Shown here: piece by piece, positions 28,977 through 60,540 of the stretch
How the letters are laid out: each line of letters starts with the position of its first letter
Position numbering within the stretch: the stretch's first letter is position 1
Origin: a virus
Length of the DNA stretch: 64,000 bases
Reading direction: 5' to 3' (one strand)
Virus record (IMG/VR): IMGVR_UViG_3300013118_000772
Program-made: the position numbers and the translations under genes
The notes under the pieces: model-generated
What the model saw: only the letters and a program-made list of their open reading frames with translations
The model's database searches: none
Told to the model about the DNA's origin: nothing

Positions 28977-31232
28977 ATGGATAAACTTAGTCAATTAAGG
29001 AGATTTTGGGGGTTATACATTCTTTTTATAATATCTATAATAGGCATTTTACTAATTAACCAAACAAAAGCTGAGGAGGTTATATATACCAGAGGAGATT
29101 TCCTTACTTTAGTAGAAAATACTGAAAATTGTTTCAATTGTCATACAATATATAGAATTTGTAAACCAAGAGAATTAACATCTAATGACGCTAATTTTCT
29201 TATTAGGTTTTATAAAAATACAGGTAGTGAGATAGTTAAAAACTATAATATAAGAGTTTGGAAAAACGTATCCAAAACAGGTTTAGCTACTGATTATGAT
29301 AATGTGCAAATGAATTATACTTGTATAACTGATTCTTTTAATTATACTACTAATCCAAACTATGCATGGTGTTATGCACCTAATGGAACAACAATATTTG
29401 AACATGATTTTGATGGCGGTAATATTCCTTCCCAGTCAATATGGTGGGATGAACAAATCGAAGTTGGGCAACATAATACAACTTATCAAGAAGAGGAATG
29501 GGATACTGTTACTAAGCTACAAGTTAAAAATGCAGTAATAAATGCCCCTATTGGAACTTGCTGGGATGTTAAAATATCAGGAAAATTAAATTGGGCTGAT
29601 AGCGTAGACAATATTGTAGAATTTGCCGGATTTAATTATACTGAATATTCATGGTGGAATAATACATGGGCTAATAGAAAAAATATAACTATGACTAATA
29701 CTCATGCTCAAACATTAACAGATTATCCTTGTAATTTTACTATTGATGGAGCATCATTAATTAGTAGTAATCAACTACAAGCTGATGCAGATGATTTTAG
29801 AATTATAGATTTAAATGGAAATAGTCTAAACTGGGTTAATACATCTTCACTTAATAATGCCAATGCTGATATATGGTTTAGATGTAATATTAGTTCCTCT
29901 AGTTCAACAGATTATTCAATATACTATAACAATAGTTTAGCAACTTCAAATACAAGGACTAATACATCACATGTAATGGGAATGATGCTAACATCAGATA
30001 CTAGATTATTGGCACATTTAGATGAAGGTACAGGTTCATCTATTTTAGACGAAGATAATGGTTTAGTAGGAACAATTTCTGGAGCGACATGGAACACATC
30101 AGATTGTAGAATAAGTAATACATGTTTACATTTCGATGGTGTTAATGATTATGCTTATTGGGCAGATAATGCAGTATATGATATGCAAGCTATGGACTTT
30201 ACTTTGGAAGCTTGGGTTATGCCTTTATTAGATGCTGAATCGGATTCAGGTATTGGTATTATAACAAAAAGAAAGGATGGCTCTTCAAATAGAAACAATT
30301 ATGCTATGACCTTAGATGAGGATAGCGATATAATTGGTATGAATTATCAAGGAGGAACTACCTGGGTTACTGTAACTAATTCCGTTGTTACTGTTCCAAA
30401 TACATGGTATCATATTGCCATTGTATATGATGAATCAGGTAACACTTGCAAATATTATATTAATGGTACTTGGATTGGTCCGGCTGATAGTTGTACTACT
30501 TCACCTACATCAAATGATGCTAACGTTGCTTTAGGTATTTTGCAAACAGATAATGTTCCGGGATCTGATCATATACATCATATTAAACTAGATGATGTTA
30601 GAATTACTCAAGCAGCTTTGACAAGTAACCAAATTAATCATAGTGCTATGGCTTATATTATAACATCTGCTTTTGGAGGAGAAGAAAGTATGCCAGTTAA
30701 TAATGCTCCTACATTAAATACAACTATTATTACTCCTACAATAACACATGCTGGAGATGCATTATCCTGTAATGCATCAGCTAATGATGATATTAATACT
30801 TCTTTAACTATTGAATGGAGATGGTTTAATGGAAGTAATGAGTATGCTTTTGGAAATGCCACAAGTAAAGCAGTTGATATAAGTAACTATTTATCAAGTG
30901 TTGGCGCGGATGTAACAGATTTTATGGAAGTTTGGAATTGCTCAGTACGAGCTTATGACGGTAACAGTTATTCGGCATATAAGTCAAGTAAAATAACTGT
31001 TTATGAAAAGATAAACGGAACAGTAATTGATTCAGCAAGTACTCCAATAAATGGAGCGGTAGTCTTTATTGTTCATCAAACTAATATGAGTTATTTTGTA
31101 AATACTACCACTGATGGTGATGGAAAATATGCTTTAACAGCTACACAGGGAGGAAATTATACAGTTGTTTCATTTGATCCAACTAACTCAACAAGAATGG
31201 GAGATGTTAAACCATTTGTAGAGGTAAGTTAA
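28977..31232 (+). CDS. Large secreted glycoprotein with LamG/concanavalin-like domain (candidate receptor-binding protein)
   Basis: Signal-anchor; LamG-like segment CLHFDGVNDYAYWADN...FTLEAWV...WYHIAIVYDESGNTCKYYINGT; many NxS/T sequons; shares a CN..IE(W)RWFN...GN.S module with the 45107-50344 protein. Confidence 0.55.
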   Translation: MDKLSQLRRFWGLYILFIISIIGILLINQTKAEEVIYTRGDFLTLVENTENCFNCHTIYRICKPRELTSNDANFLIRFYKNTGSEIVKNYNIRVWKNVSKTGLATDYDNVQMNYTCITDSFNYTTNPNYAWCYAPNGTTIFEHDFDGGNIPSQSIWWDEQIEVGQHNTTYQEEEWDTVTKLQVKNAVINAPIGTCWDVKISGKLNWADSVDNIVEFAGFNYTEYSWWNNTWANRKNITMTNTHAQTLTDYPCNFTIDGASLISSNQLQADADDFRIIDLNGNSLNWVNTSSLNNANADIWFRCNISSSSSTDYSIYYNNSLATSNTRTNTSHVMGMMLTSDTRLLAHLDEGTGSSILDEDNGLVGTISGATWNTSDCRISNTCLHFDGVNDYAYWADNAVYDMQAMDFTLEAWVMPLLDAESDSGIGIITKRKDGSSNRNNYAMTLDEDSDIIGMNYQGGTTWVTVTNSVVTVPNTWYHIAIVYDESGNTCKYYINGTWIGPADSCTTSPTSNDANVALGILQTDNVPGSDHIHHIKLDDVRITQAALTSNQINHSAMAYIITSAFGGEESMPVNNAPTLNTTIITPTITHAGDALSCNASANDDINTSLTIEWRWFNGSNEYAFGNATSKAVDISNYLSSVGADVTDFMEVWNCSVRAYDGNSYSAYKSSKITVYEKINGTVIDSASTPINGAVVFIVHQTNMSYFVNTTTDGDGKYALTATQGGNYTVVSFDPTNSTRMGDVKPFVEVS

Positions 31233-31537
31233 TGATAATTAAAAAAAAGTTATTAATTAGTATTATTTTAATAAATATATTAGCAAGTGGGGTATATGTA
31301 ATTGGATATACTGCACCTGGAAAAGCGGCAGCTAATTTAATATTAGAAGGTGGATATACTGCACCTTCAAGAGTTAATACAATTTTGACTTTAGGAATAG
31401 AAGGATTAGCTATAAGCTGGGTCACTCCAGATGGTAATGATAATCATACACAAAATAGTTTTAAAAAATATGAGTTCACGGTCACTTGTAATAGTGCAAG
31501 TTGTGGTAATGTAAATGTAACTTTAGATCCTAAATAA
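31232..31537 (+). CDS. Small secreted protein (101 aa)
   Basis: Signal peptide; C-terminal CGNVNVTLDP motif also present in the giant protein. Confidence 0.35.
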   Translation: MIIKKKLLISIILINILASGVYVIGYTAPGKAAANLILEGGYTAPSRVNTILTLGIEGLAISWVTPDGNDNHTQNSFKKYEFTVTCNSASCGNVNVTLDPK

Positions 31538-31610
31538 GATGAAAGATGGATACGATTAAAAATGTCACAAAAAAGTTTAAATTCAACGTTTTTATACTTG
31601 CGGTGATCTA

Positions 31611-34019
31611 ATGAACAAAAAGATTATATTGCTTGTTTTGTTATTAGTAATAATAGGTACTGTCGAGTTTCATGATCTAGTAAGAAAAAAGATTAGGAAA
31701 TCAAAACATTTAGTCGATAAAAACAGCGAAGATATAACTATATTTAGCTCATTTGAATATATTGATAATCAGTTCATTTTTGACGATGGAGATATAGAAC
31801 TAAAATTGATTCCTGTGATTGAAGAGAACGATAACAAAAAGATCAAGCTTAAAAACAAACAAGATAGAGACTGGAAAAGGATCAGACACAAGATAGAAAG
31901 AGACAATAACAAATACAAATTCACTTTAGACTTATCAGGGGTTAGAAAGAACAAAAGAGAAAGAGTACAGAAAGTGTACTTTGATATAGACTGGGATTAT
32001 GATTGGGACATACATATAGAAAACAATACAGTCTTTAGATTTGGACCAAAACACACAAGCGGTAAGTATGAGATGGACTTTCAAGACTTAGTAGATTTAG
32101 GTTATAAAGTAAGAATATATAATAAAACTGTCGAGATAAGCAACCTAAAAGGTAAAAATTTGGATTTAGATCCTGTTATCCATGTTACTACAGGAGACAT
32201 AGAAACAGTTGAGGGCTGTGCATTGGGAGATAACAAGGTTGTAGCAGGATACTTTGATGATACAAGTGATGACTTTAGCTTTCAGATAATATCTACAAAC
32301 GGGACAGTTATTGTTTCTGAAACAGACATAAATGATGCCTTAAGTTTTCATAATTATGCTTCTCAAATTGCAATCTCATGTAAGAATGAAACTTTATGGA
32401 GTGCAACTTATTACAATGCTCCAACAGACAATGTAACTACTGTCTTTTATGACGACACAGGAACACTAAAACATGGTCCTTTTGATATATCTGGAAATCA
32501 AATAGAAAGATTTGCATATTATGTAGGTGTATTTGATTTAAACGTAACAGACTCTGTTGTCTACTATCATGATAATTATTATAGAGATTTTGAATTTATT
32601 ATTCTGGACATATATGGTAATCAGAAATTAGGACCTATAAAAATAGATGATAATATGGGATCTGGTATTCATGGTGCAGACGGAGACGCTTCAAATGAAA
32701 CTAATTTTGGATTTACATATTGTGATGATGCAGACAGTAACAAACCAATTAAAACAGTATTTTATAATAATCAGGGGGATATAACTCTTGGACCTATAAA
32801 AATCTATTTTGGGAGCAGTTATGCGAATGACGAAGCTATGTCTTTAGTTTTTGTGAATGAGACCACATGGGTTCACTTATTTGAATTAGATACTCAAAAC
32901 GATATTTTTCTTAATATTTTTGATATTTGGGGTAATAACTTGGTTGCTAACCAAACCTTAGATACAGAAGTACAGAATGATCCTTCATACAATGATTTGG
33001 CTAGAATTAACAACACTCACTTTGGAGCTTCTTGGAAAGACAGAAACCCCAATAGTCAAGCCCATGTTGTATGTAATCTTCAAGGAACCTGTACAAATGA
33101 CAACAGCGTAATAACAACAGGCGGTAATAATAGAGACAACGCAATAGTAAGCTCACAACTAGCAACAGGACCAGAGATATGTAACGATAATTATGTCCAT
33201 TTTGGATCAAACGCTTCAGGTCTATTTATGAGTACACATTATCCTAACGGTACTTTATGGGATGGAGTTTGTATAGAAGAATTAGAAAATTCCTTAAAAA
33301 GCATAGTAACCAATGTACCAGGTTCAGAATTATTCTGGCATAATGGTTCTACTATTAATTACGAATGTGGTTTAATGATAAAAGGACAGACATGTACAGC
33401 TACATTCTGGGTTAATGCCACAGATGATATTAATAGCACACATGAATTTTACGGAATAGTAAGCTCAAGTAGTGGCAGTATAGTAAATGTTAATAGTAGT
33501 AAATTAAATATAACCATTAGAGAAGCAATTTCAAGTTGTACCGATACAACATTCACTTTAAGTTATCCTGGATTTGGATGTGATGATTATGGAAGCACAG
33601 ATGGTTCAGCTGATTGTGAATATTGTGCTTTTGTCGCTTCTGACACTACTGGTGCTACTAATGAAGTAGGAATAAATTGTACTGGACAAAATTCCACAGA
33701 AGCTTTTATAGTAGTTGATAACCAGGGAGATTGTGCTTTAAATATATCAATGCGTATGAATATTGATGTTAATATATCTAAATTTAGATTTAAAGTAAGC
33801 CAAAATGCTACTGGTTGGGAATCTTCTTGTTCCGGTGGAATACCTACTAATGGATGTTTAAATATAGAAGACACCAATTTTAATACTGTGGCTACTAATG
33901 TAACTGACTTAGGAGGTATTATTGACAAGGAAATTTGGATGTATGGAGATTATATAGGAGTTTATCATGTCGACAATGGAACATCATATGGATTAAATAT
34001 GACAGGTGATGAAGGTTAA
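31611..34019 (+). CDS. Large secreted glycoprotein (802 aa), paralogous module shared with giant protein
   Basis: Signal peptide MNKKIILLVLLLVIIG; segment LFWHNGSTINYECGLMIKGQTCTATFWVNATDD parallels FYHNGTEINYECGTLNHNESCIASFWVNATGE in 45107-50344. Confidence 0.5.
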   Translation: MNKKIILLVLLLVIIGTVEFHDLVRKKIRKSKHLVDKNSEDITIFSSFEYIDNQFIFDDGDIELKLIPVIEENDNKKIKLKNKQDRDWKRIRHKIERDNNKYKFTLDLSGVRKNKRERVQKVYFDIDWDYDWDIHIENNTVFRFGPKHTSGKYEMDFQDLVDLGYKVRIYNKTVEISNLKGKNLDLDPVIHVTTGDIETVEGCALGDNKVVAGYFDDTSDDFSFQIISTNGTVIVSETDINDALSFHNYASQIAISCKNETLWSATYYNAPTDNVTTVFYDDTGTLKHGPFDISGNQIERFAYYVGVFDLNVTDSVVYYHDNYYRDFEFIILDIYGNQKLGPIKIDDNMGSGIHGADGDASNETNFGFTYCDDADSNKPIKTVFYNNQGDITLGPIKIYFGSSYANDEAMSLVFVNETTWVHLFELDTQNDIFLNIFDIWGNNLVANQTLDTEVQNDPSYNDLARINNTHFGASWKDRNPNSQAHVVCNLQGTCTNDNSVITTGGNNRDNAIVSSQLATGPEICNDNYVHFGSNASGLFMSTHYPNGTLWDGVCIEELENSLKSIVTNVPGSELFWHNGSTINYECGLMIKGQTCTATFWVNATDDINSTHEFYGIVSSSSGSIVNVNSSKLNITIREAISSCTDTTFTLSYPGFGCDDYGSTDGSADCEYCAFVASDTTGATNEVGINCTGQNSTEAFIVVDNQGDCALNISMRMNIDVNISKFRFKVSQNATGWESSCSGGIPTNGCLNIEDTNFNTVATNVTDLGGIIDKEIWMYGDYIGVYHVDNGTSYGLNMTGDEG

Positions 34020-34067
34020 ATCATACTCATGAAATCATGAGAATAAACAAGAAGGAGGGATAAAAAC

Positions 34068-34643
34068 ATGAAAATAAAGAAAAGTTTAGTAGCTATTATG
34101 GCTATGGTTATATTAGCTACTGCAGTAATTGCAGTTAGTTATGAAGATGTGACTGTAACATACGTTATTCCAGCAGATATTGCTTTTTCAACATCTTACG
34201 CTGGAAGTTGTGGAACAAGTGATTTCGCATGTAGAGAAAACGATGGATCATATCAAGGGACGCAAAGCCAAATAAATATAACACAGACAGATGGAACAGT
34301 GTGTCAAGCAGCAGCAACACCAGCTGTACAGTTTACAAACGACGGAAATACGCCAATAAATATAACAGCAAGGTTGACTAGTTCACAGGTAGCTGGAGTA
34401 GTATTAAAAGCTTCAGAAGCTTATGCAGGATATGAATCAAGTTGTAATGAGTACAACATGTCCAATGCTACAGCTTGTGTAAATGTAACTGCTGCCAATT
34501 TTTTGGTGTTAACAGATGACATTGCAGCTAGTGGAACAAGCGATGTATATTTCTGGTGTGACTTCAGTAACTTTAATTCTGGAGCAGCTACAACAGGAAT
34601 AACAAGAACAATGACATTGAACTCAACACAAGAAACTGCATAA
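34068..34643 (+). CDS. Secreted/membrane structural protein (191 aa)
   Basis: Strong SD AAGGAGGGA; N-terminal TM/signal MKIKKSLVAIMAMVILATAVIAVS; Thr/Ala/Ser-rich. Confidence 0.45.
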   Translation: MKIKKSLVAIMAMVILATAVIAVSYEDVTVTYVIPADIAFSTSYAGSCGTSDFACRENDGSYQGTQSQINITQTDGTVCQAAATPAVQFTNDGNTPINITARLTSSQVAGVVLKASEAYAGYESSCNEYNMSNATACVNVTAANFLVLTDDIAASGTSDVYFWCDFSNFNSGAATTGITRTMTLNSTQETA

Positions 34644-34679
34644 ACAAATTATTTTTTTAATTTGTTTTTGTATACGTAG

Positions 34680-34991
34680 GTGAAAAAAATGAAAAAGTTG
34701 CAACGTATATCAACTGTTATAATAGTTGACAACAGAACACAGGGAGAAAAGTTAAAGGACGAAATAACTAACTTTATCAATAACAGTTATAAAAAAGGAA
34801 TAAATGAAATTAAGTGCTTAATTAAAAAAGATAAATCGTTTACTAGGTTATCTATTTTAATTTTGGTAGATTCAAATGTATTAAATGCTAGACAAATACA
34901 AAACTCAGTAGAAGCATATACAAAAATGAATTTTAATATATCAGAAGAACATATAGAAGCCCATTTTAGAACGGTTTACAATAGAACATGA
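34680..34991 (+). CDS. Hypothetical protein (103 aa)
   Basis: ORF with GTG/ATG start in co-directional array. Confidence 0.3.
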   Translation: MKKMKKLQRISTVIIVDNRTQGEKLKDEITNFINNSYKKGINEIKCLIKKDKSFTRLSILILVDSNVLNARQIQNSVEAYTKMNFNISEEHIEAHFRTVYNRT

Positions 34992-35001
34992 GGTGAAATA
35001 G

Positions 35002-35436
35002 ATGAGTGAAGAAAAAAAGAAATCAAAGATGGACAATAAATCCCGCAAAATGGTCATCATTGCTGCCATAGTTACTATACTAGCTGTAGTTTTAGTGTTA
35101 GCTTTTACTGGATCATTTGGTAAAATTTTTGTTGATAATAAAATACCAGAAGATGTTGATCCAACAGATATTATAGAATTAAAAGACAAGCCTGTTAAAA
35201 ATGATCTAAATGAAAATAAAAGGCCAGGATGTGGAAATGGAATAGTTGATGAAGGGGAAACATGGACAAACTGTAGAGATGATTTAAATAAGGATTGTGG
35301 AAACGGGATATGTGAGGAATGGGAGACATATGTCAATTGTGGGGATTGTCCTTATTGTATTGATGATAGATTTGACGAAGTTGATCTCGACAATGAATGT
35401 TCCATTATTGAAGAAGGAAAAGATAAATATAAATGA
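35002..35436 (+). CDS. Membrane-anchored protein with two Cys-rich CGNG repeats
   Basis: Signal-anchor then CGNGIVDEGETWTNCRDD and CGNGICEEWETYVNCGDC (resembling the Myxococcus-type Cys-rich repeat C-G-N-G-x-x-E-x-G-E-x-C-D-D). Confidence 0.4.
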   Translation: MSEEKKKSKMDNKSRKMVIIAAIVTILAVVLVLAFTGSFGKIFVDNKIPEDVDPTDIIELKDKPVKNDLNENKRPGCGNGIVDEGETWTNCRDDLNKDCGNGICEEWETYVNCGDCPYCIDDRFDEVDLDNECSIIEEGKDKYK

Positions 35437-37009: not shown

Positions 37010-37010
37010 A

Positions 37011-37018
37011 TTTAAATA
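37011..37018 (+). promoter_or_regulatory. Box A-like TTTAAATA element
   Basis: 44 bp upstream of 37062 start. Confidence 0.3.
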
Positions 37019-37061
37019 CCCGTTATTAAATTATTAAAATATAAGGCGAAAAGGTGAGTGG

Positions 37062-38660: not shown

Positions 38661-38674
38661 GGTGGAAAGTTTAA

Positions 38675-39154: not shown

Positions 39155-39166
39155 GGTATATAAAAG

Positions 39167-40306: not shown

Positions 40307-40308
40307 TC

Positions 40309-40617: not shown

Positions 40618-40618
40618 A

Positions 40619-41248
40619 ATGGTAACAAAAACATTAAGAAATATTATACTTTCAGCTTTTGGAATATTTTTTGTAATTATACTTCTTAGAGTTACTAATG
40701 GACTTGAACATATATGGAAATTTATAGATAGATTTGGTTCATATATATTATTGCTAGCTTTATTAGTATCGATAGGAATAGCTGCTTATTTCTATTTTTA
40801 TAAGAAAACAAAGCAAGAAAATCAAGATCAAGTCAAAAAATCATGGGAATTCATATGTAATTGGTGGGATGAAACAATGGGAATGTCAGAAGGACTTAAA
40901 TTGGAAGATTCTTTCATGAAAGAAGGATATTATGATTCAAGTCAAGGACAAACGGAAAGATTTTTTGGATGGAATGTAACTAAAATGAGTACATCAGAAA
41001 GAATAATTTTCATAGTAGGAACCAGTCCTTTTAGAGTAGTTAGATTTATTAACAGACCCAACATTGGAGAACAGGAAGATCCTTTCGAATCTTTTTATAG
41101 TGTCCCACCTAAACCTGTGCCAGGATTTAATGATTTTGCTATGCAGAAATATGCTGAAATGGAAAGAAGAAAAAAGGAAACTCCAGAAGAAAATGATGAT
41201 GCTGTTGATCCTTTATCTGGGGATTGGGTAGATGGAGGGGACTTATAA
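40619..41248 (+). CDS. Membrane protein (209 aa, 2 TM)
   Basis: Two N-terminal hydrophobic helices; acidic C-terminus. Confidence 0.35.
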   Translation: MVTKTLRNIILSAFGIFFVIILLRVTNGLEHIWKFIDRFGSYILLLALLVSIGIAAYFYFYKKTKQENQDQVKKSWEFICNWWDETMGMSEGLKLEDSFMKEGYYDSSQGQTERFFGWNVTKMSTSERIIFIVGTSPFRVVRFINRPNIGEQEDPFESFYSVPPKPVPGFNDFAMQKYAEMERRKKETPEENDDAVDPLSGDWVDGGDL

Positions 41249-42626
41249 TATGGTTATTGAAAATTTATTTATCGGTAAAAAGGAATTTTTATCATACCAG
41301 AAAGTTTTTAATGCCAATGAATCTGTTATAACTGACATGGTAAGATTTCAAAAACCCGAAATTAAATATTCGATGAGTGCTATTCCTATTGGAAGGATTA
41401 GAAAGAGTTTAAAGCCACATGTAATTGATTTATCCCATTCAAAAAGAATATTAATATTAGGTATGACAGGGAGCGGAAAATCCGTTCTATGTGGAAGTAT
41501 CATGGATAGATTTAAAAAATCTGGGGGGTTATTAAGTATTTTTGATCTTAAAGGAGAATATATAGTTAAATCTGTTCCTTTAAAGGATAAATTTTCTGAT
41601 AAATATATAACCAATGCTAATGGAGAAAAGGTCAGAACATATTTGTTTAATGAGGAAACTCCTCAGGGTTTTGAGTTAAAAAGTTATTATCCTGTTTTTC
41701 TTAAAAATATAATGGCTGGATCAACATTAAAAGATAAAAATAGACCTTTATTTGAAAATGAATCTTTATGTCAATTTGGAATGGAAAGTTTAACCAAAAC
41801 AGATTTTTTTACTTTTTTTGAAACTATCACTAATAGAAATTCATCGTATTTTGAATATTTAGAAGAACTATGGTTGGGCATTGAAAGAGATAGTCTTTCT
41901 ACATGGGAAGACATAGTTAGTTTTATTGAAGATCATGATGTATTTAGTAAAAGTACTAGAAAAAATCTTATTAGAAATCTGACCATTTTAAAGGATAATG
42001 AAGTGCTTGGAAATGCTTATGATCCTCCAGACTTAATAACTGATTTAAAAGAAAATAGAATAGGAATTCTTAATTTAAAGGGTATAATCAATTTACCTGT
42101 TACAACTAATCCTGCTCTAGTATATGTAAATATATTACTACGTAAAATTTATAATTCTAAAGTAATAGGAGATGTTAGTACCAAAAAACATAATTTAATC
42201 TTTGTAGATGAAGTAAATAAATTTGTCCCTAGATTAGGAAGTACCCCTTCAAAGGATGAATTTTTAAAGTTATTGGATTTAGTAAGAAGTGAACATATAA
42301 GTATGATGTATTCTACTCAGGATTGGAGAAGAATCCCTGAAACTCTAATAAAACAAGCTGATTATGTTTTCTTACCATTTAACATTGATTTAGATGATTT
42401 AGCTGAAATAGTTAAATTAGTTTTACCATCAGAATATCATACTCCTCAAACTTTTAAAACTAAAATGTCTCACCTTCAATCTATGATGAAGATTTATAAA
42501 GATGGAAGAAGGGATTGGTTAATGATAGATAAGATAAATAAGAAAAGGGTTTTCTTTACGCCAGTTTTGCCCCTTTCTTATTTTCTAGAGGAAGGAGAAA
42601 AAGCAGAAAATGTACTTTCATCTTGA
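41232..42626 (+). CDS. HerA/FtsK-type P-loop ATPase, candidate genome-packaging ATPase
   Basis: Walker A LILGMTGSGKS, Walker B LIFVDEVNKF; 464 aa. Confidence 0.6.
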   Translation: MEGTYNMVIENLFIGKKEFLSYQKVFNANESVITDMVRFQKPEIKYSMSAIPIGRIRKSLKPHVIDLSHSKRILILGMTGSGKSVLCGSIMDRFKKSGGLLSIFDLKGEYIVKSVPLKDKFSDKYITNANGEKVRTYLFNEETPQGFELKSYYPVFLKNIMAGSTLKDKNRPLFENESLCQFGMESLTKTDFFTFFETITNRNSSYFEYLEELWLGIERDSLSTWEDIVSFIEDHDVFSKSTRKNLIRNLTILKDNEVLGNAYDPPDLITDLKENRIGILNLKGIINLPVTTNPALVYVNILLRKIYNSKVIGDVSTKKHNLIFVDEVNKFVPRLGSTPSKDEFLKLLDLVRSEHISMMYSTQDWRRIPETLIKQADYVFLPFNIDLDDLAEIVKLVLPSEYHTPQTFKTKMSHLQSMMKIYKDGRRDWLMIDKINKKRVFFTPVLPLSYFLEEGEKAENVLSS

Positions 42627-42927
42627 CCTTTCAAAAACGAGAATAGAAATATGTGTAGCTTTTATAGATGTATGGGCTCAATTGGATAAAAAATATTTTA
42701 ATTTAAGAGAAATTGCTAGAATAACTGATTTAGATTATGTTTCTACTCTTTATAGAGAAAAAGACTGGTTAATAAAAAGTAAAATATTTTTAATTAACGA
42801 AGATAGAAATAAATATAGTGTTAGTTTTAAAAATATGGCTTATGTTCTTTTTGTAGAGAGCAATTTAGGCAATTTATATTACCTTTCACATAAATTTCTT
42901 GATTTGCCTAAAAATATAGAAAATTAA
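42610..42927 (+). CDS. Hypothetical protein (105 aa)
   Basis: ORF overlapping ATPase 3' end. Confidence 0.3.
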   Translation: MYFHLDLSKTRIEICVAFIDVWAQLDKKYFNLREIARITDLDYVSTLYREKDWLIKSKIFLINEDRNKYSVSFKNMAYVLFVESNLGNLYYLSHKFLDLPKNIEN

Positions 42928-42975
42928 ATTTTTTAATAAATTCTATTCTAAAATTATAAAAATTTAATAAACATA

Positions 42976-42983
42976 TTTAAATA
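42976..42983 (+). promoter_or_regulatory. Box A-like TTTAAATA element
   Basis: 71 bp upstream of 43054 start; strong SD GGAGGGGGT precedes the ATG. Confidence 0.3.
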
Positions 42984-43053
42984 ATAATCAATATTATAAT
43001 AATATAAAGGTAAAACCTTTAGAAATTCTATAAACTAGGAGGGGGTAAAAAAT

Positions 43054-44115
43054 ATGAATACGAAAGGGGAAATGTCCACCGGCAAAGCTATTATACTGTT
43101 AGCAGTTTTAGTAGTTGGCTTGGTAGGATATATGGTATATGATGATATTTCGGCTGAAACGCCTGAATTTACCATTAATGTACCAACATCGGGTGGCATT
43201 GGAACCACAGGAGAAGGTGGAGGAGTTATTTGTCCTGACACTATGCAAACAGCGTTCAGTGGAGATGCATTAAATCCATTAAACAGTTCAGCATCAGAAT
43301 ATGTAGCAAGTGCATGGAAACTTGTCCCAGGTGGAGACTTTAGTGAATTCACATCTTATACGTCAGCAGCAAGTTCAACAAGAACTACAGCTGTAAACTT
43401 AAAATGTGGAAAAAGCTACATGCTTTATCCGACAGTAGCATCACAAGATACTGTAAATTCAGTTGATCCAGTTGATCTTGGTCAACTGTCAGGAAACACT
43501 AAAGCGAAAGTAATTAACGTACCGAAGCTGTCTTTGTTAAAAGCAACTGCTTATGACAATTTAGGAAGATCTTTTGTCTATGACTCAGCAGATGCAAGTA
43601 ACTCAGATTATGAGAACTTTGGTGGAACCTGGAAAAGTACAACAGATAACGCAACTGCAACAGCAATGACTTCAGCAAGTGTCCTTGACTGGTCTTTTAC
43701 CGTGATTACCCAAACAGGTAGTGCACAATTTGGTAATAAAGACCTTGGAACTTATGTAGCTGTTGATGCAGATAAAACAGATTTCAACATTCCACAATTG
43801 TGGCTAGATGGAATCAAGTTAACTGATGTAAAAGGAACAGGAGAAGTCAATAATAACGACGAAGCAACATTAAGTGCTTATGAGTACATCTTTAAGTTAC
43901 CTGCTGACTTAACCCAAACACCTCACGTGATAAGGTTATATGCAGATCCTAAATCTGGTGTAGATCCAGACGTGGATATTAAGCTTAGAACAGTAGGAAA
44001 AGCATATTATGTGCAAGGAGATGGATACACAGTTGGGAAAGCAATCTTTAAAGATACAGACTCATCTGAAATTTTGACTGCTACAGCGCAGACAATGACC
44101 ATTGATATCTCATAA
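43054..44115 (+). CDS. Candidate major structural protein (353 aa) with N-terminal hydrophobic anchor
   Basis: MNTKGEMSTGKAIILLAVLVVGLVGYMVY N-terminus (pilin-like signal possible), Thr/Ser/Ala-rich, GC-richer, very strong SD, followed by long T-rich tract. Confidence 0.45.
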   Translation: MNTKGEMSTGKAIILLAVLVVGLVGYMVYDDISAETPEFTINVPTSGGIGTTGEGGGVICPDTMQTAFSGDALNPLNSSASEYVASAWKLVPGGDFSEFTSYTSAASSTRTTAVNLKCGKSYMLYPTVASQDTVNSVDPVDLGQLSGNTKAKVINVPKLSLLKATAYDNLGRSFVYDSADASNSDYENFGGTWKSTTDNATATAMTSASVLDWSFTVITQTGSAQFGNKDLGTYVAVDADKTDFNIPQLWLDGIKLTDVKGTGEVNNNDEATLSAYEYIFKLPADLTQTPHVIRLYADPKSGVDPDVDIKLRTVGKAYYVQGDGYTVGKAIFKDTDSSEILTATAQTMTIDIS

Positions 44116-44131
44116 GAATGTGTTGTAAATA

Positions 44132-44155
44132 TTTTTTATTTTTTTTATTTTTTAT
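44132..44155 (+). terminator. Long T-rich tract (terminator candidate)
   Basis: TTTTTTATTTTTTTTATTTTTTATT a few bases after stop codon. Confidence 0.4.
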
Positions 44156-44248
44156 TAATAAAATCTAGTAAATTTATTTTTTTTATTCATTTAAGACGTT
44201 AAAAAATAATTAAATTTATAAAAAGATTAAATAATTATTATATTTAAT

Positions 44249-44395
44249 ATGGAAAGATTAAATTTTGGGGATAGTGTTACCGTTAATGTAATTAGAAATT
44301 CTAGTTCAGGCAAAATAGTTTTGATTTTGGCAATATTTTTAATCATCATTATATCATCATATTTAGTTTACAAAATATCTAAAAGGAAAGAATGA
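44249..44395 (+). CDS. Small TM peptide (48 aa)
   Basis: Manual translation MERLNFGDSVTVNVIRNSSSGKIVLILAIFLIIIISSYLVYKISKRKE. Confidence 0.25.
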   Translation: MERLNFGDSVTVNVIRNSSSGKIVLILAIFLIIIISSYLVYKISKRKE

Positions 44396-44399
44396 TAAT

Positions 44400-44573
44400 A
44401 TGGATTTATTTCAAAGGATTTTAAGATCGCTGGGTATATCTATCATATTTATTATTTTAGGTATAATATTTTCAAGTAGCATAACATTAAGCTGGTTATT
44501 TGGAATTTTTATATTCTATTTAGATTTTGTAATTAGAAATGATTTGGAAAAATTAATGGAGGGAGTTAAATGA
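44400..44573 (+). CDS. Small TM peptide (57 aa)
   Basis: Manual translation MDLFQRILRSLGISIIFIILGIIFSSSITLSWLFGIFIFYLDFVIRNDLEKLMEGVK; ATGA overlap with next gene. Confidence 0.25.
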   Translation: MDLFQRILRSLGISIIFIILGIIFSSSITLSWLFGIFIFYLDFVIRNDLEKLMEGVK

Positions 44574-45094
44574 AAAAGCCAAATAAATTTTTAGGCATTA
44601 GCATGGGTATGGCTCTTATACTAGTTTTAGCTTTAGGAGCTATTCAAAGTAACAAAACTGTGCCTAATGGAGAAGAGGTGAGATATTATTCCAACGTTTG
44701 TGCATATAAAAACAATGTGTTGATAGATTGCAATAGTAATGTTGTAACTAACACAGGAAAGGATTTTATTAAAACCTCAATTGGACAGGGAGCATCTAAT
44801 AACGTAAGTGAATTAGCTATTGGAAATGGGACAACTCCAGTTGTAGCAAGTACTAGTTTAGATGGAGAAAAAACAGCAAATGGACTTGAAAGAGTTAATG
44901 GTACTTATTATAACAATGGAGTAGGAAATTGGAGTATTGTATACACATGGACATCAACAGCTGATGCACAAGTATTAAATACTACAGGTCTTTATGCTAT
45001 TGGTGGTAACTTGTTTGCTGGTACAACATTTACTGAGACAACATTGCAGACTGATGACCAAATAACAATTAACTATACAATATCAGTAAGTTAA
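44570..45094 (+). CDS. Secreted structural protein (174 aa)
   Basis: N-terminal signal/anchor MKKPNKFLGISMGMALILVLALGA; Thr/Asn-rich. Confidence 0.45.
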   Translation: MKKPNKFLGISMGMALILVLALGAIQSNKTVPNGEEVRYYSNVCAYKNNVLIDCNSNVVTNTGKDFIKTSIGQGASNNVSELAIGNGTTPVVASTSLDGEKTANGLERVNGTYYNNGVGNWSIVYTWTSTADAQVLNTTGLYAIGGNLFAGTTFTETTLQTDDQITINYTISVS

Positions 45095-45106
45095 GAGGTG
45101 TAGCTA

Positions 45107-48100
45107 ATTGAAACGGCTTCCCTCCTTAAAAAAAAAGTATTTTTTGTTTTTTTATTAGTTTTTACTCTTTCTAATTTTGTATTTGCCGAGAAAGGAATTA
45201 ATTGGATAGATGAAAATAATGAGATAACCATATACAGTTATCCTGTTAATTATTTAGATGAAAATACTTATAAGCCAATTAATACTACTATAATTCAATC
45301 AGACGTTTGTGATTTTGATTATTGTGTAAGAAGTGGAATTTATTACGTAGATTTTAAATCAAATTCTAACTTAAATAATATAGTTAAATTTATCTATAAA
45401 GGGCAAACAATTTATTATACTCCAGAAAAATTACAATATATAGTAAATAATAAAAAAAGTCTAATTGCTAATCCCTCTAAGGTGACAGGAATTTCAGAAG
45501 GTAATAAATTTATTTATCCTAAAATATATGGTGAAGGATTAGACTTAAGTTATGATTATGAAAATACTTTTCTAAAAGAACAGTTAATTATTGACCGATT
45601 TGATAGATTGCCTGAACCTGGTAACCAGTTAACAAAAGACAATGAAGAAATTTACTTAAGTTTAGAATTTGAATTGGATACTAATGATAATGTGAATAAT
45701 AAATTTAGAGATAAAGAAAGCAAAGTCTTATGGGATAAGCAATCATTAAGGGAGTTTAAAAAAATAGAAGTTTTAAACGAAAATAATGAAGTATTGACCT
45801 TTCTTCCTGAACCTTATGCTATTGATTCAAAAGGAAATAAAATTAAACTACAATATCAATTTAAAAAAGAAGGTCAAAAGTTAATCATATCTATTTTAAC
45901 TCCATATAGTTGGATATCAGATATTAAAAGAGTTTATCCTATCTATATAGATCCTTCTACGACTTTAAATTATAATAGTGGTGGAATGGATTCTGAGATT
46001 GATAGTGATACTCCTAATTCCAATTTTGGTTCAGCTACTAACATGGAAGTTTATGAAGTTGATGTTTCGAGATCATTAATTTGGTTTAATATGTCTTCAA
46101 TTATGGAAAAAGCAGTTTATAGCTCAAGTATGACTATATATAAAGAAAGTGGTTCACTTGCTACTATTACAGTTTACGTGCATAGAATACTTAACGAATG
46201 GATAGAAAATCAAGTAACCTGGAACAATAGGAAAACAGGCACTGCTTGGGATACTGCAGGTGGAGATTTTAGTTCAATAGCAGAAGTATCTCTAAAAGAA
46301 TATTTTGGATCAGGCTGGCACACATGGAATATGACAAATGTAACTAAGGATATTGTTAAAGGCGTATATACTAACTATGGTTGGATTTTAACAGACAATC
46401 CAACCGTGTACCAAGTTAGACTTTCCACACAGGATAATACTATTGGAGGAGATATAAGAAGACCATATATGACAGTTAATTATTATGATTCAGTAACTAT
46501 AGATTCAGCATTAATGTTTCCAAATAATCCTTTATCATCAGATAACATTACATGTAATACAACTCCTGTAGCTGATGCTAGTACAGTTAAAATAGAATTT
46601 AGATGGTTTAATTCCACACATGAGTTATTATATGGCAACGTTAGTGGAGTTAGTAATAATACAAATTCTTTAATAACCACACTTGGAAGTGGAAATTATA
46701 CCACAGGTAATACTATAAACTGCTCATTAAGAGGATATTATAATTCCGATATTGGAGGATATAGTGATTGGAAATCATCATTGAAAACTATTAGTAGTCA
46801 ACCTCCTACTTGGGATGAAATAATAACATCTGTAAACATAAATCATAGTAATAACTTAAGTATTCAATTAAATGCCACTGATCCTGATTTAGACGCTTTA
46901 ACGTGGAACATAAATGAGTCAATGGCAACCATTAACCAAACTGGATATTTATTTGATAATCCAGCTATAACTGACTATGGAAATTACTCTTTGCAAATTA
47001 ATGTTACTGATGGATCTAATACTATAGAAATGAACATTAGTTATGAGGTAATAAATAACCAACCATTAATAGATAATTTAGATGTTGGTCCTCAGAGTGA
47101 CCTACTACCTACTGAACTACATGATCTTGTCTGTAATTATAATATTAGTGATGTTGATTCTGATAATTTAAATATATCTTTCGATTGGTATAATAATGGT
47201 GCTAGTCAGAGTATTAATAATGGAACTTTAGGATACGGAAATACTAGTATAGGTGAGTTATGGAATTGTAGCATAAATATAACTGATACTGTTCTTAGTA
47301 ATTATCAACAATCTAGCTCAGTTGAGATAAAAAACTTTTATGGTAATTTTAGCGTTGACTGGATAACTCCAACTGTTAATTCCACTCATGGATATTATAA
47401 GTTAATATTATATCAATATAATATAAGCTGTATAAATGGATATACTTGTGGTAATGTAAATGTTACTCTTGATCCAATTACAACTTATAAGTTTAACTCT
47501 ACATATGAAAATATAGACTTTTTTGCTTATGAAAAAGAAGGAACAGGTGGAGATATATATGCTGCTGCAACCGTCAATATAACTCTAAATCCTAATTTAG
47601 ATAGCAATGATGGAAGTTTCCTTCCTTCCTCATCTGGTGGTGGACATAGTTTACAAAGATTTATTGCTTGTGTAAATGAGAAAATAGATAGAATAGAAAA
47701 TATAACATGGATGTACGATGGATCTTCTTCCTCCGGGGTAGGAGATGATATGATAATGTTTATTTACAACTTTACCAATTCTAGTTGGGATTATTTTGAT
47801 ATAATAGAAATTGATTATGATATAACACTTGAATATAATAGTAGCTCAACCGATGATTTAATAAATGATTCTGGATGTTTGTTAATGGAAATTGCAACTG
47901 ATGAAATAGGTTCCTCCATTAAAACAGATTATGTTCAATTAAGTGTGGAATATACAGAATTTAAAGGTTTAATTGATAATGACCCAAACTCAGAGCCATT
48001 TTATCATAATGGAACTGAAATAAACTATGAGTGTGGAACATTAAATCATAACGAGAGTTGCATTGCTAGTTTTTGGGTCAATGCTACAGGAGAAACTGAT

Positions 48101-50344
48101 TTATATGAATTTTTCACTATTATATCTTCAAATTATACAAACATGGTAGATGTTGAATCTAGTTTTTTATATATTAATTTAACTGTTCCAATTGTTAATA
48201 ATCGTTCTGGTTTTGAAAATATGGTCCTTGCTGATGTATCTGGTGATTTGAAAGATATTAGTAGATTTAAATTTGATTCATTATCCTCTAATGATTTTTT
48301 TATCAGTAAACTATTGGCTGATAGAAATATTTTTGATTCTTCTTTAACCGGTGAGATATTATATAGATTATCTAATATATTTCGATCCAAAGAAGATTAT
48401 AATAGTTTAAATGATGAATTATATAAAAGTAGGTCATTAAGATTATTTACTTATGATAAAAGTAATATAAATGAAATTTTAGTTAATGAATTTTGGTATA
48501 AAAGATATATTAATAACCTAATTTCATACGATGATTATTTAAATGTATTATTACTTACTGAAAGAAACATAGATAGTTCCATTTCAATAACCGATTTTAA
48601 TAATAAAATATATATGACAAAATTTAATGTATACGAAGTCGAATCATTACAAGACTTTATTGATAAAGAAGCTTTGTTTAATAGAAAGTTATCTGATATA
48701 GTCACTATAAATGAGCTAGATAATATATTATACTCATATAAAAGAAATAATATAGAATATATTTCATATGGAGAATTTTTAAATGATTTATCTATTCATT
48801 TTATTGAAACAGAAGATAGTTCAGGTATAGAAGATAATATTAAAAGAAAAATAGGATTACTACTAGATGAAGAATTGTCTATTAATGATATTAGATTGTT
48901 GTTACTAGGTTTAAAAAGAGATGGATTAGAAAGCATTTCCATATCTGAATTATTAACAAAAACATCGTTTTTCAATAGTGATATTTTGGATTCTTTTAGT
49001 ATATTTGATCAACTGATAAAAAATAAAGTTATATTAAGAAGATTAGATTTAGTTTTGAATATAAATGAAGATTCATTTTTTAAAAGCAATATATTTAGAT
49101 TTTTATATGAAGATATTTCAATTCAAGAATATATTAATAGAATAGGAGTATTTAAAAGAAATATTTTTTCATCAATTGATATTATAGATATAGAAAAAGT
49201 AATAAATCAAAAGAAACGATTAGGTTATGATTCAATAGAAGTGTTGGAACTACTAGATAATTTAGGTTTATATGATAGAGATAGTCAAGATTCAATTGAT
49301 TTGTTAGAGGAACTGGAAAGAAAGGGAATTTTAAGTAGCTCAATTTTCGATTCTGTTTCCTTATCTGAACTAGAAAAAATAATTAATAACTATAATCGAA
49401 ATAAACAATTAAGTGTAAATATAAATGAAATTTTAGATGATTTAGGATTATTTAATCCAAACATATCAGAAGAAGTAAATGTAATAGATATATCATCAAT
49501 TTTATATAACTTGTTTAGATACGGTGATGATCAGGTAATTTTAACAGAGGATTTCAGCTTTATAGATATTTTGTATTACAAATTTCCTTTATATAATGAT
49601 ATTTTAGTTAATGATGATATAATAAGAAATTCAGATTTTCAAAGATTGTTAACTGATGCTCTTTCTTCTAACGACAATATAAATAGATATTACTCTACTA
49701 TTATGATTTTTTATGATCTAGTACAAATACTTCCATCTGCTAATGTTAATAATTTATTTTTTAATTCAATTAATTTAAATATTGATCTATTTGATATAAC
49801 CAAAAGCATGAGTTTATTTTCGAGAAATATTGATTCCAATTTTGGATTATCAGAATCAATAAACAAAGCAATTAATTTTAACAGAAAACTTTTTGAAAAT
49901 TTATCCAGCTTGGATTTTATAACCAAAAGAAGAGTTTCATTTAGAAATATTAATTCTTTTATAAACATCAATGAATTTATAAATAAAACTAGAAGTGCAG
50001 TTTCACCCGTATCAGTAATAACTCCTACTTCTAGTAGTCCTTATGAACAATATAAGATGGAGGTTTTTATTAATGAAACAATGCCAGTAGAAATAATTGT
50101 ATTGGGAAAAGGAATTTTAGTTCCACCTGAATGGGCAAGAATAGTAAACAATGTTAAATGGCTATTTCAAAAAGAAAATATTGGAATTTTAATTCCTCTT
50201 TTAATATTAATTTTAATTGTTATAACAGGATCAGTATTTGTATTAATAAAAAAGAAAGTTAAAAGTAAAGGTAAAAGAGTAAAAGTTAAAAGGAAGAAAA
50301 ATGATAAAGTTAGATATATCAAACGGCGTAATAATGTTAAATAG
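45107..50344 (+). CDS. Giant surface glycoprotein (about 1745 aa): N-terminal signal peptide, beta-rich glycosylated domains, C-terminal degenerate tandem repeats, C-terminal TM anchor
   Basis: ORF track begins at GTG 45482, but the frame is open from 45104 and encodes a textbook signal peptide (KKKVFFVFLLVFTLSNFVFA then EKG). Proposed ATT start at 45107-45109 behind SD GAGGTG. C-terminal IGILIPLLILILIVITGSVFVLI then KKKVKSKGKR. Confidence 0.55.
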   Translation: METASLLKKKVFFVFLLVFTLSNFVFAEKGINWIDENNEITIYSYPVNYLDENTYKPINTTIIQSDVCDFDYCVRSGIYYVDFKSNSNLNNIVKFIYKGQTIYYTPEKLQYIVNNKKSLIANPSKVTGISEGNKFIYPKIYGEGLDLSYDYENTFLKEQLIIDRFDRLPEPGNQLTKDNEEIYLSLEFELDTNDNVNNKFRDKESKVLWDKQSLREFKKIEVLNENNEVLTFLPEPYAIDSKGNKIKLQYQFKKEGQKLIISILTPYSWISDIKRVYPIYIDPSTTLNYNSGGMDSEIDSDTPNSNFGSATNMEVYEVDVSRSLIWFNMSSIMEKAVYSSSMTIYKESGSLATITVYVHRILNEWIENQVTWNNRKTGTAWDTAGGDFSSIAEVSLKEYFGSGWHTWNMTNVTKDIVKGVYTNYGWILTDNPTVYQVRLSTQDNTIGGDIRRPYMTVNYYDSVTIDSALMFPNNPLSSDNITCNTTPVADASTVKIEFRWFNSTHELLYGNVSGVSNNTNSLITTLGSGNYTTGNTINCSLRGYYNSDIGGYSDWKSSLKTISSQPPTWDEIITSVNINHSNNLSIQLNATDPDLDALTWNINESMATINQTGYLFDNPAITDYGNYSLQINVTDGSNTIEMNISYEVINNQPLIDNLDVGPQSDLLPTELHDLVCNYNISDVDSDNLNISFDWYNNGASQSINNGTLGYGNTSIGELWNCSINITDTVLSNYQQSSSVEIKNFYGNFSVDWITPTVNSTHGYYKLILYQYNISCINGYTCGNVNVTLDPITTYKFNSTYENIDFFAYEKEGTGGDIYAAATVNITLNPNLDSNDGSFLPSSSGGGHSLQRFIACVNEKIDRIENITWMYDGSSSSGVGDDMIMFIYNFTNSSWDYFDIIEIDYDITLEYNSSSTDDLINDSGCLLMEIATDEIGSSIKTDYVQLSVEYTEFKGLIDNDPNSEPFYHNGTEINYECGTLNHNESCIASFWVNATGETDLYEFFTIISSNYTNMVDVESSFLYINLTVPIVNNRSGFENMVLADVSGDLKDISRFKFDSLSSNDFFISKLLADRNIFDSSLTGEILYRLSNIFRSKEDYNSLNDELYKSRSLRLFTYDKSNINEILVNEFWYKRYINNLISYDDYLNVLLLTERNIDSSISITDFNNKIYMTKFNVYEVESLQDFIDKEALFNRKLSDIVTINELDNILYSYKRNNIEYISYGEFLNDLSIHFIETEDSSGIEDNIKRKIGLLLDEELSINDIRLLLLGLKRDGLESISISELLTKTSFFNSDILDSFSIFDQLIKNKVILRRLDLVLNINEDSFFKSNIFRFLYEDISIQEYINRIGVFKRNIFSSIDIIDIEKVINQKKRLGYDSIEVLELLDNLGLYDRDSQDSIDLLEELERKGILSSSIFDSVSLSELEKIINNYNRNKQLSVNINEILDDLGLFNPNISEEVNVIDISSILYNLFRYGDDQVILTEDFSFIDILYYKFPLYNDILVNDDIIRNSDFQRLLTDALSSNDNINRYYSTIMIFYDLVQILPSANVNNLFFNSINLNIDLFDITKSMSLFSRNIDSNFGLSESINKAINFNRKLFENLSSLDFITKRRVSFRNINSFININEFINKTRSAVSPVSVITPTSSSPYEQYKMEVFINETMPVEIIVLGKGILVPPEWARIVNNVKWLFQKENIGILIPLLILILIVITGSVFVLIKKKVKSKGKRVKVKRKKNDKVRYIKRRNNVK

Positions 50345-57512: not shown

Positions 57513-57522
57513 GAGGAATTTA

Positions 57523-59536: not shown

Positions 59537-59548
59537 AGGAGGATTAAA

Positions 59549-59734: not shown

Positions 59735-59796
59735 TTATATCTATTTATTAAAATTAATGGCTTAAATCAAATATATAAAAGTAATGGAGATATAAT

Positions 59797-60177: not shown

Positions 60178-60203
60178 ATAAATATATTAATGGAGGGATA
60201 AAA

Positions 60204-60533: not shown

Positions 60534-60540
60534 GGGTATA

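Follow-up and report, generated by a model that had tools for sequence, protein, structure and literature searches.

Pleolipovirus spikes of the VP4 type carry a signal peptide, a large glycosylated ectodomain, a single C-terminal transmembrane (TM) helix and a short basic tail. SPEARE-type proteins of Nanohaloarchaeota are very large, chromosomally encoded proteins that combine adhesion (LamG-like) and protease domains. As far as we are aware, the viruses and plasmids of Woesearchaeota and Pacearchaeota are almost entirely uncharacterised. LamG/concanavalin genes have been found in DPANN viruses and were interpreted as aids to symbiont adhesion (PMC11310336). In this study, a stretch of 64,000 nucleotides (nt) from the IMG/VR virus record IMGVR_UViG_3300013118_000772, called the window below, was analysed for four proteins encoded on its plus strand, namely, proteins of 751, 101 and 802 amino acids (aa) and a giant protein re-annotated here. 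By their domain content, these proteins are new, strongly diverged members of the DPANN adhesin-like surface-protein repertoire, carried on a novel 77-kb element that bears on how DPANN cells, and the agents infecting them, recognise surfaces.

The element resembles each of the described systems in part. With the giant surface proteins of DPANN archaea (P0005, 3570 aa; P0004, 2797 aa) it has in common DUF2341, Laminin_G_3 and an immunoglobulin (Ig)-like repeat of about 85 aa (38-48% identity), as well as the B/C cassettes described below (in Woesearchaeota), dense sequons and a presumed adhesive role. Unlike these proteins, the element spreads its domains over several smaller genes and is extrachromosomal (77 kb), and its giant protein adds a 600-residue stalk-like stretch of 20-residue repeats and a C-terminal anchor. 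Receptor-binding proteins of tailed viruses, represented here by the loci L009 and L008 (3300031227_000687, with the architecture FN3-B-cargo-C), similarly place lectin-like heads on Ig-like modules and are mosaic between genomes. In the element, in contrast to the tailed viruses, genes for an HK97 capsid, portal, tail tube or baseplate are not recognisable, and its parts, unlike those of L009, are encoded singly, each with an export signal of its own, and one is membrane-anchored. The giant protein is like the pleolipovirus VP4 spikes in its signal peptide, large ectodomain (glycosylation predicted), C-terminal TM helix and basic tail; however, it is several times larger, is made of adhesin domains and is without relatives in 50,697 records of phages and archaeal viruses. 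A likeness to SPEARE proteins, as these are generally described, is seen in the outside protein P0099, a B-cargo-C protein with an S8 protease as its cargo, whereas SPEARE proteins are chromosomal and much larger. Mosaic lectin/Ig-domain surface proteins are to be expected in a mobile element and are not surprising; the new points are the rule of B, cargo and C, the occurrence of this cassette in split form in the 101-aa and 802-aa genes, the corrected giant gene and the stretch of 20-residue repeats.

An earlier note on this DNA had described the four proteins as a family in which short modules recur in different orders. The peptides that it quoted are all present where it placed them, and its three sequence parallels represent homology by BLASTP, phmmer (--max), Smith-Waterman shuffles and profiles made from outside sequences. 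When every open reading frame (ORF) of the window was compared with every other by BLASTP and phmmer --max, both programs returned the same three significant similarities and no more. The giant protein shares module A with residues 572-675 of the 751-aa protein (BLASTP 29% identity over 109 aa, E 7e-8), module B with residues 58-100 of the 101-aa protein (41% over 44 aa, E 1e-8) and module C with residues 562-640 of the 802-aa protein (44% over 79 aa, E 5e-15). The Smith-Waterman scores of the three pairs lie 15.8, 15.9 and 26.5 standard deviations above 1000 composition-preserving shuffles, profiles from outside sequences match the same stretches (E 1e-13 to 1e-25), and an invariant W, P and H and four C stand among the aligned columns. 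Because the shuffle scores and the outside-profile matches are significant, the shared segments are not low-complexity artefacts, the outcome that the note itself had named as fatal to its proposal and that the alignments rule out. The arrangement is another matter: A, B and C follow one another in the giant protein in the gene order 751, 101, 802 and are thus collinear, and each small protein has one different module in common with the giant protein, with nothing shared among the three small proteins by BLASTP, phmmer or profiles. The earlier observation is largely real, and its description inaccurate.

In the sequences compared, B and C are not free modules but enclose exchangeable cargo as the two conserved ends of one cassette. 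The term B-cargo-C cassette is used here for a polypeptide in which C follows B after 156-617 residues of variable cargo. Six outside proteins (P0052, P0067, P0077, P0099, P0101 and P0109) contain both modules, B first and C 331-412 residues on, and pattern scans added more copies of B and C from IMG/VR (L008, L009) and from metagenome contigs. Among species-representative metagenome-assembled genomes (MAGs), the modules occur in one of Pacearchaeota (placed in the kingdom Nanobdellati, which equals DPANN), three of Woesearchaeota and one of Methanosarcinales. The six proteins came from a query holding both modules; the loci were each fetched through one pattern only, and the partner module found in them is therefore independent evidence. 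Profile scoring outside the element gave 34 B and 34 C. Wherever a B had any module downstream, the next one was C (24 of 24, gap 156-617 aa) and in no case another B, and the ten B without a partner stand at fragment ends. The cargo comprises CBM96, S8 subtilase with an I9 inhibitor, LamG-like, Gly-rich, jelly-roll-like and repeat domains, and giant Woesearchaeota proteins chain several cassettes. The giant protein of the element holds one cassette (residues 751-1030; profile matches of B at 751-791 and of C at 953-1014) with a small cargo, whose end DYVQLSVEYTE resembles, by inspection, the RPYLNITYS end of the CBM96 domains of relatives.

Apparently uninterrupted B-C pairs in three loci (L024, L027, L029) proved to be C followed by the B of the next cassette, or C alone, and no natural cargo-free B-C domain was found. 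Since C occurs alone in tandem in a Pacearchaeota protein (L010), it probably folds by itself. No Pfam family was matched by the isolated modules A, B and C or the small cargo X at E up to 5, a search of PDB sequences with a B+C profile found none, and a word-index homologue search with this profile returned the 101-aa protein only. B and C might be the halves of a single beta-sandwich into which the cargo domain is inserted. In a Foldseek search of the cassette model against PDB, nothing fell below E 1e-3; the non-significant matches were small cohesin/Ig-like domains that span B to C over about 290 columns. The architectural rule of B, any cargo and C, which recurs in cellular giant proteins and viral tail genes and is absent from Pfam and PDB, marks where binding or enzymatic heads are exchanged; its cargo is easy to enumerate and includes domains suited to assays of glycan binding or protease activity.

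Taken together, the 101-aa and 802-aa genes resemble one such cassette cut right after B; in this pair the sequence of B, cargo and C is found only across two ORFs. The 101-aa protein ends one residue past the conserved LDP, and its module B is 57-63% identical to that of P0101, P0077, P0052 and P0109, to whose N-terminal parts the whole protein corresponds. The 802-aa gene starts 74 nt after the 101-aa gene, with a GGTGAT motif 5 nt upstream of the start. The N-terminal domains of P0029, P0042 and P0016 are homologues of the 802-aa cargo, and a word-index homologue search with the complete 802-aa protein found only itself. The split could also be a decayed gene, consisting of a pseudogene fragment with a functionless 101-aa product and a truncated remainder. 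The stop one codon after the conserved LDP would suit such decay, and the homologous gene in L009 is interrupted too, albeit elsewhere, inside CBM96. We nevertheless consider decay unlikely: both ORFs have their own start and hydrophobic export segment, the 802-aa gene has its GGTGAT motif, the module B of the 101-aa protein is well conserved (profile 1e-21, besides the identities given above), and independent assemblies yield identical calls for the two genes. The break in the L009 gene, which has the order LamG-B-CBM96-C, lies at L009 10546-10601 and may be a frameshift, a sequencing error or a real split.

A more far-reaching idea is that B and C constitute an undescribed cargo-display scaffold, with which DPANN archaea and their viruses would display binding or enzymatic domains that can be exchanged, and which in this element would be split into two exported polypeptides (the 101-aa protein with B, the 802-aa protein with cargo and C) that rejoin outside the cell by beta-strand complementation, the B protein serving as a universal adaptor or anchor for swappable cargo-C heads. 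We regard this idea as speculative and rather improbable. A fourth shared module, unlisted in the earlier note, is indicated by the tail of the 802-aa protein and the 191-aa secreted protein encoded after it, which are 30% identical by BLASTP over 56 aa (E 3e-5 for a single comparison). The 802-aa tail alone has a weak match to DUF7356, and the 191-aa protein has no Pfam family.

The 751-aa protein is, judged by its domains, a soluble DUF2341-LamG-Ig protein. The LamG domain that had been noticed in one of the four proteins is confirmed here as Laminin_G_3 (PF13385; 63.1 bits against a gathering cut-off of 27.6, E 4.2e-17). DUF2341 (PF10102), which commonly accompanies LamG, was unlisted in the scan of the whole protein and is matched by the fragment of residues 210-390 (30.2 bits against 23.4, E 6.4e-7), and also by homologous stretches of P0057, P0093, L012 and L009. 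A HMMER search with residues 440-1048 of the giant protein detected 618 proteins at E ≤1e-3, up to 4,676 aa in length, most of which match the first 320 query residues, many by several stretches. According to profiles made from these matches, module A, a weakly Big_9-like segment and a segment termed A2 belong to a single family of Ig-like repeats about 85 residues long, of which about 155 outside proteins contain 573-840 instances; in the window, three stand in tandem in the giant protein and one in the 751-aa protein. Residues 566-650 of the giant protein score 16.6 bits against Big_9 (PF17963), below the cut-off of 23.6, and the related protein P0099 matches Big_9 at 1.5e-29. P0004 and P0005, which are among the best matches, lie in ordinary chromosomal neighbourhoods of one archaeal MAG (GCA_964444505.1) that has GatD/GatE-type archaeal genes, and P0005 contains Big_5, DUF2341, LamG and SBBP domains.

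The window copies of module A are 28% identical (rank 27 of 63), with the best outside copies at 40-42%; those of module B are 42% identical (rank 7 of 12; outside copies up to 63%) and those of module C 44% (rank 5 of 13; up to 56%). Because the window copies are less alike than they are to outside proteins in all three modules, no recent exchange is visible inside the genome. The earlier note had read the shared segments as the work of four paralogues in this genome that keep exchanging short modules by recombination under host-range selection. Three significant shared segments and the wide mosaicism of the larger family would agree with it, but the modules are collinear and not permuted, nothing is common to the three small proteins, the identities of 28-44% fall below those to outside proteins, and assemblies fetched from several samples have identical gene products where fetched and DNA 99-100% identical where aligned. 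Such ongoing exchange is very improbable. What holds of the recombination claim is its wider part: domains are combined differently between genomes, and no shuffling is seen among these four proteins.

At the level of the family, mosaicism across genomes is clear from the domain orders. P0042 (L019) joins a signal peptide, a domain like the 802-aa cargo, Big_9-like and A2 repeats, a domain of an 882-aa protein of the element and a TM helix with a basic tail. P0074 (L020) matches residues 34-741 of the giant protein and is followed by a 751-like DUF2341 gene, and a 917-aa ORF of L034 has the N-terminal domain of the giant protein fused to another part of the 882-aa protein. The 882-aa protein shares domains with P0042, P0074, P0056 and the 917-aa ORF, and it belongs to the same mosaic network because its domains are common to the same outside proteins. 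L034 and L035 (Joint Genome Institute (JGI) 3300033155 and 3300033143; 64,134 and 64,251 bp) contain a co-oriented array of large ORFan surface proteins of 600-1444 aa, which have in common with the element the N-terminal domain and Ig repeats of the giant protein and domains of the 882-aa protein, together with P0010 and a 1444-aa LamG protein whose Ig repeats are 47-48% identical to those of the giant protein, and may represent a related element type. In L009 (IMG/VR tailed-virus contig 3300033150_001342), a single gene runs from a 751-like N-domain through DUF2341, a LamG-like region, B and CBM96 to C, an order that mirrors the genes 751, 101 and 802; its neighbours are genes for a portal and an HK97 capsid protein on one side and for a YqbQ-like baseplate protein on the other.

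Signal peptides had been ascribed to all four proteins, and N-terminal signals and topology were judged here by hydropathy only. The giant protein as listed, from GTG 45482, has no signal peptide. Its frame is open from 45107, where the N-terminus reads KKKVFFVFLLVFTLSNFVFA and then EKG, and the stretch upstream of GTG 45482 is coding, as P0002 (45% identity from residue 43) and P0074 align there. No ATG, GTG or TTG start would include the signal peptide, and the sole in-frame start is ATT 45107, from which the ascription holds. In the 802-aa protein, RKKIRKSK comes after the N-terminal hydrophobic segment, an unusual feature for a signal peptide that is cleaved. The only hydrophobic segments of the giant protein are residues 10-29 and 1686-1718, the latter followed by the basic tail; given the ATT start, it has the predicted features of a type I membrane protein. 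The A9 tract in the signal-peptide codons was considered as a site of phase variation, which received no support, the tract being identical in two assemblies.

Within the ectodomain of the giant protein, CBM96 (PF24517) scores 40.1 bits against a cut-off of 26 (E 4.2e-10). The 20-residue repeats run without insertions or deletions, with BLOSUM autocorrelation peaks at lags of 20, 40, 60, 80 and 100 well above those of shuffles and a consensus of roughly xxRNIxDSISIxDxINKxxx. The repeat stretch is nearly free of sequons, though Asn, Ser and Thr are abundant across the giant protein as a whole. AlphaFold2 (AF2) modelled five of the repeats, with the protein's own repeats as the multiple sequence alignment, at low confidence (predicted local distance difference test (pLDDT) 52.6), with about one helix per repeat and a short strand before it in two of the five. 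Residues 1031-1630 are read as a putative stalk. No relatives of this stretch or of the C-terminal anchor were found among 150 outside proteins, and a word-index homologue search with the N-terminal half of the giant protein returned itself and P0002 only. The coordinates of these features and of the other genes named in the text are given in Table 1.

Table 1. Features of the element in window coordinates, except for the last row (res, residues).
Feature	Residues	Nucleotides	Strand	Remarks
751-aa secreted protein		28977..31232	+	hydrophobic N-terminal signal res 7-31, then unknown N-domain; 28 sequons
DUF2341	751-aa res 271-333	29787-29975	+	Pfam
Laminin_G_3	751-aa res 387-554	30135-30638	+	Pfam
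Ig-like module A	751-aa res 576-677	30702-31007	+	profiles A/A2, 8e-19 and 2e-19
CarboxypepD_reg-like	751-aa res 679-731	31011-31169	+	Pfam
101-aa protein		31232..31537	+	hydrophobic N-terminus, two short GYTAP..N..L.L repeats, module B
Module B	101-aa res 61-100	31412-31531	+	profile B 1e-21
802-aa protein		31611..34019	+	own hydrophobic N-terminus, then basic stretch
'Leg' domain ending LDLDP	802-aa res 40-189		+
Repeat-containing cargo	802-aa res 190-556	32178-33278	+	internal period of about 105 aa
Module C	802-aa res 563-640	33297-33530	+	profile C 4e-21
Cys-rich tail	802-aa res 641-802	33531-34016	+
191-aa secreted protein		34068..34643	+	res 91-145 resemble 802-aa tail res 704-757
FtsK/HerA-superfamily ATPase		41232..42626	+	Pfam DUF87 4e-13; phrog_2666 'terminase large subunit' 1e-12
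GAGGTG motif		45095-45100	+	ATT start 6 nt downstream
Giant protein, re-annotated, 1745 aa		45107..50344	+	ATT start 45107
A9 tract in signal-peptide codons		45128-45136	+
Signal peptide	giant res 1-27			hydropathy
N-terminal 'leg'	giant res 34-290
CBM96	giant res 295-445	45989-46441
Three Ig-like repeats	giant A 466-552, Big_9-like 566-650, A2 651-744	46502-47338
Module B	giant res 751-791	47357-47479
Small cargo X	giant res 795-948
Module C	giant res 953-1030	47963-48196
About 30 in-register 20-aa repeats	giant res 1031-1630	48197-49996
TM helix	giant res 1693-1713	50183-50245		followed by 32-residue basic tail
Rce1/CPBP-like intramembrane protease		50486..51250	+	Pfam PF02517 8.7e-7, 29.6 bits against 22.4
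882-aa sequon-enriched membrane protein		51555..54203	+	outside the range of the earlier note
Gene cluster of the 7-deazaguanine DNA-modification type		5845-11869	-	TGT/DpdA-like, 448-aa PP-loop-like, QueC, nucleoside 2-deoxyribosyltransferase, GTP cyclohydrolase I, radical-SAM QueE-like, PTPS/QueD
Out-of-window rest of circle		L015 11040-19417 (scaffold_491)		RFC-like clamp-loader AAA, XPB/ERCC3-like helicase, tyrosine integrase, many small ORFs

Sequons exceed the number expected from composition in the 751-aa protein (28 against 14.8, z 4.1), in the 802-aa protein (25 against 11.6, z 4.7) and in the giant protein (46 against 29.7, z 3.7), where they are concentrated in residues 400-1030. 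The dense sequons claimed for all four proteins are thus borne out for these three and not for the 101-aa protein (2 against 1.3 expected). Proteins of 214, 532 and 882 aa also show an excess, with z of 3.7-6.0 over all six. The broader characterisation of the group, as sequon-enriched proteins of an archaeal element that have lectin domains and are secreted or anchored in membranes, stands. The exported or membrane proteins encoded at 54529-59208 (633, 361 and 561 aa) are unlike their sequon-rich neighbours, containing 0-1 sequons where 4-6 would be expected. The 561-aa protein contains 35 cysteines; a weak match of the 361-aa protein is Zn-phospholipase-C-like.

The window is the first 64 kb of a JGI metagenome contig (3300009128|Ga0118727_1001204; 68,749 bp), and two ENA samples contain near-identical contigs of 75,009 and 76,885 bp that are mutually permuted. 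A circle of about 76.9 kb was closed, the left flank of one contig overlapping the right end of another (99% over 1,403 bp), and the element was found in several samples without host flanks and with constant size. This circular archaeal mobile element carries an integrase; it is complete and without close relatives in deposited virus or plasmid collections. Its G+C content (GC) is about 28%, and the GC skew changes sign at window 16400-16720, the point where two transcription arms diverge (near 16.5 kb), and is a candidate origin of replication. Genes for PolB, a Cas4-like nuclease, an RFC-like AAA protein, an XPB-like helicase and an SPFH protein belong to the minus-strand arm, which continues beyond the window; the tyrosine integrase lies in the out-of-window stretch on the strand opposite to the minus-arm genes. 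The plus-strand arm has an ATP-dependent ligase, then, at about 25-63 kb, a near-continuous series of secreted or membrane proteins around one FtsK/HerA-type ATPase. The adhesin-like glycoproteins predicted from their sequons (six or more large ones) take up about a quarter of the coding capacity. PolB is only 28% identical to the PolBs of haloarchaeal tailed viruses, no tRNA genes were found in the window, and megablast of 28-51 kb against phages gave no match. Judged from its gene content and the distribution of its domains, the element is probably a virus infecting Woesearchaeota- or Pacearchaeota-like DPANN archaea.

As to function, the inference with the best support is that these proteins form an attachment apparatus; a role in binding cell surfaces is likely, and the host-recognition module proposed in the earlier note is plausible. 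The signal peptide would export the giant protein, and the C-terminal helix and basic tail would anchor it in a membrane. The 600-residue stalk would hold the Ig repeats, the cassette, CBM96 and the N-terminal domain away from that membrane, and the 101-aa and 802-aa halves would each be exported by their own signal. The lectin-like heads (LamG, CBM96 and the repeat cargo) would bind glycans or proteins on the surface of the target cell. We favour a view in which the heads are the attachment apparatus of a particle and the giant protein is its membrane-anchored spike. That these are adhesin-type surface proteins, N-glycosylated by prediction, of a DPANN-virus-like element, and that they act in particle attachment, is a tentative proposal to which we give slightly less than an even chance; their membership of the virion is put forward with the same reserve. 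The replication and DNA-modification gene set, the circular genomes of uniform size that lack host flanks in several samples, the match of the ATPase to a PHROG packaging ATPase and the presence of the same cassette in tail modules of tailed viruses speak for a virus. The LamG/concanavalin proteins reported from DPANN viruses (PMC11310336) agree with the proposal as well. A set of PolB, RFC-like, ligase, Cas4-like and deazaguanine genes is typical of large archaeal and bacterial viruses.

Several points weigh against this proposal. The scanned proteins include no capsid, portal, tail or other virion protein (Pfam, PHROGs), and, apart from phrog_2666 for the ATPase, the few matches are non-virion (the CPBP/Rce1-like protease) or sub-threshold. 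The ATPase has no tblastn match in the 50,697 phage records or in 72,556 plasmid records, and the giant and 751-aa proteins have essentially no relatives in deposited virus genomes (the same 50,697 phage and archaeal-virus records). The host assignment is based on where homologous domains occur and not on CRISPR or tRNA evidence, and the GC of 28% in the element compares with 32-42% in the loci with homologous domains. The AF2 model of residues 740-1035 of the giant protein is only moderately confident (pLDDT about 58-84 for B with four strands and C with six strands) and is poor for the cargo, and the export, glycosylation and binding of these proteins are themselves inferred from sequence. 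Finally, the closest relatives of module A are cellular proteins, and a cell-surface role is therefore equally compatible.

The main rival reading takes up this last point: the proteins would be non-virion proteins that a resident or integrated element expresses and that are exposed on the surface of the infected DPANN cell. There they would modify or reinforce the adhesion of this cell to its own host cell or prevent superinfection, which would amount to lysogenic conversion with adhesins. It draws on the chromosomal giant surface proteins that are the nearest relatives of both module A and the DUF2341-LamG pair, on the tyrosine integrase, on the lack of recognised virion proteins beside these genes, and on the similar interpretation of the LamG/concanavalin genes of DPANN viruses (PMC11310336). 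Yet the genes lie within one long co-oriented block of secreted or membrane proteins that includes a packaging-type ATPase, homologous B-cargo-C genes stand in the tail module of a tailed virus, and about a quarter of the genome, spent on at least six large sequon-rich proteins, would be much for accessory cargo. Remodelling of the cell surface is accordingly regarded as possible but on balance doubtful.

The ATPase is the only virus-type structural or packaging marker found, and it lies inside the block of secreted and membrane proteins. PHROGs searches of 20 proteins of the structural block gave it as the sole informative match, and no HK97-fold capsid, portal or terminase was detected by the scans that found them in L008 and L009. 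No ATPase-related loci were found in IMG/VR, and none by a metagenome scan with the ATPase alignment. The P-loop region has weak similarity, far below cut-offs, to CedD, HerA, EccC and TrwB/coupling proteins. An integrative or conjugative plasmid could be imagined on this basis, the surface proteins being mating adhesins that act alongside a DNA-translocating ATPase of HerA/VirB4-like type and the many small membrane proteins; the many multi-pass membrane proteins at 54-61 kb, the integrase and the lack of a recognised capsid gene would fit it as well. However, the best match of the ATPase is the viral packaging family phrog_2666 (1e-12), it has no relative in the 72,556 plasmids, the replication and DNA-modification set is of the kind generally known from large viruses, and no relaxase or VirD4-type match reached the family threshold among the ORFs scanned. 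A plasmid is an improbable reading.

Of the neighbouring genes, the CPBP-like protease directly downstream of the giant gene matches no named NCBIfam subfamily and, by analogy, is a possible processing or sorting partner of the giant protein. After the ATPase gene (window 41232-45094), a 105-aa ORF is followed by Ser/Thr-rich beta-type proteins of 353 and 174 aa with hydrophobic N-termini. The 353-aa protein has no match in Pfam, PHROGs, NCBIfam or PDB sequences and the 174-aa protein none in Pfam, and PDB sequence searches of the 353-aa protein and a 364-aa protein as capsid candidates gave nothing. The regions 59198-61053 and 62959-63246 encode small, very hydrophobic, Asn-poor (0-2%) multi-TM proteins, which match no family and could be abundant membrane or coat components.

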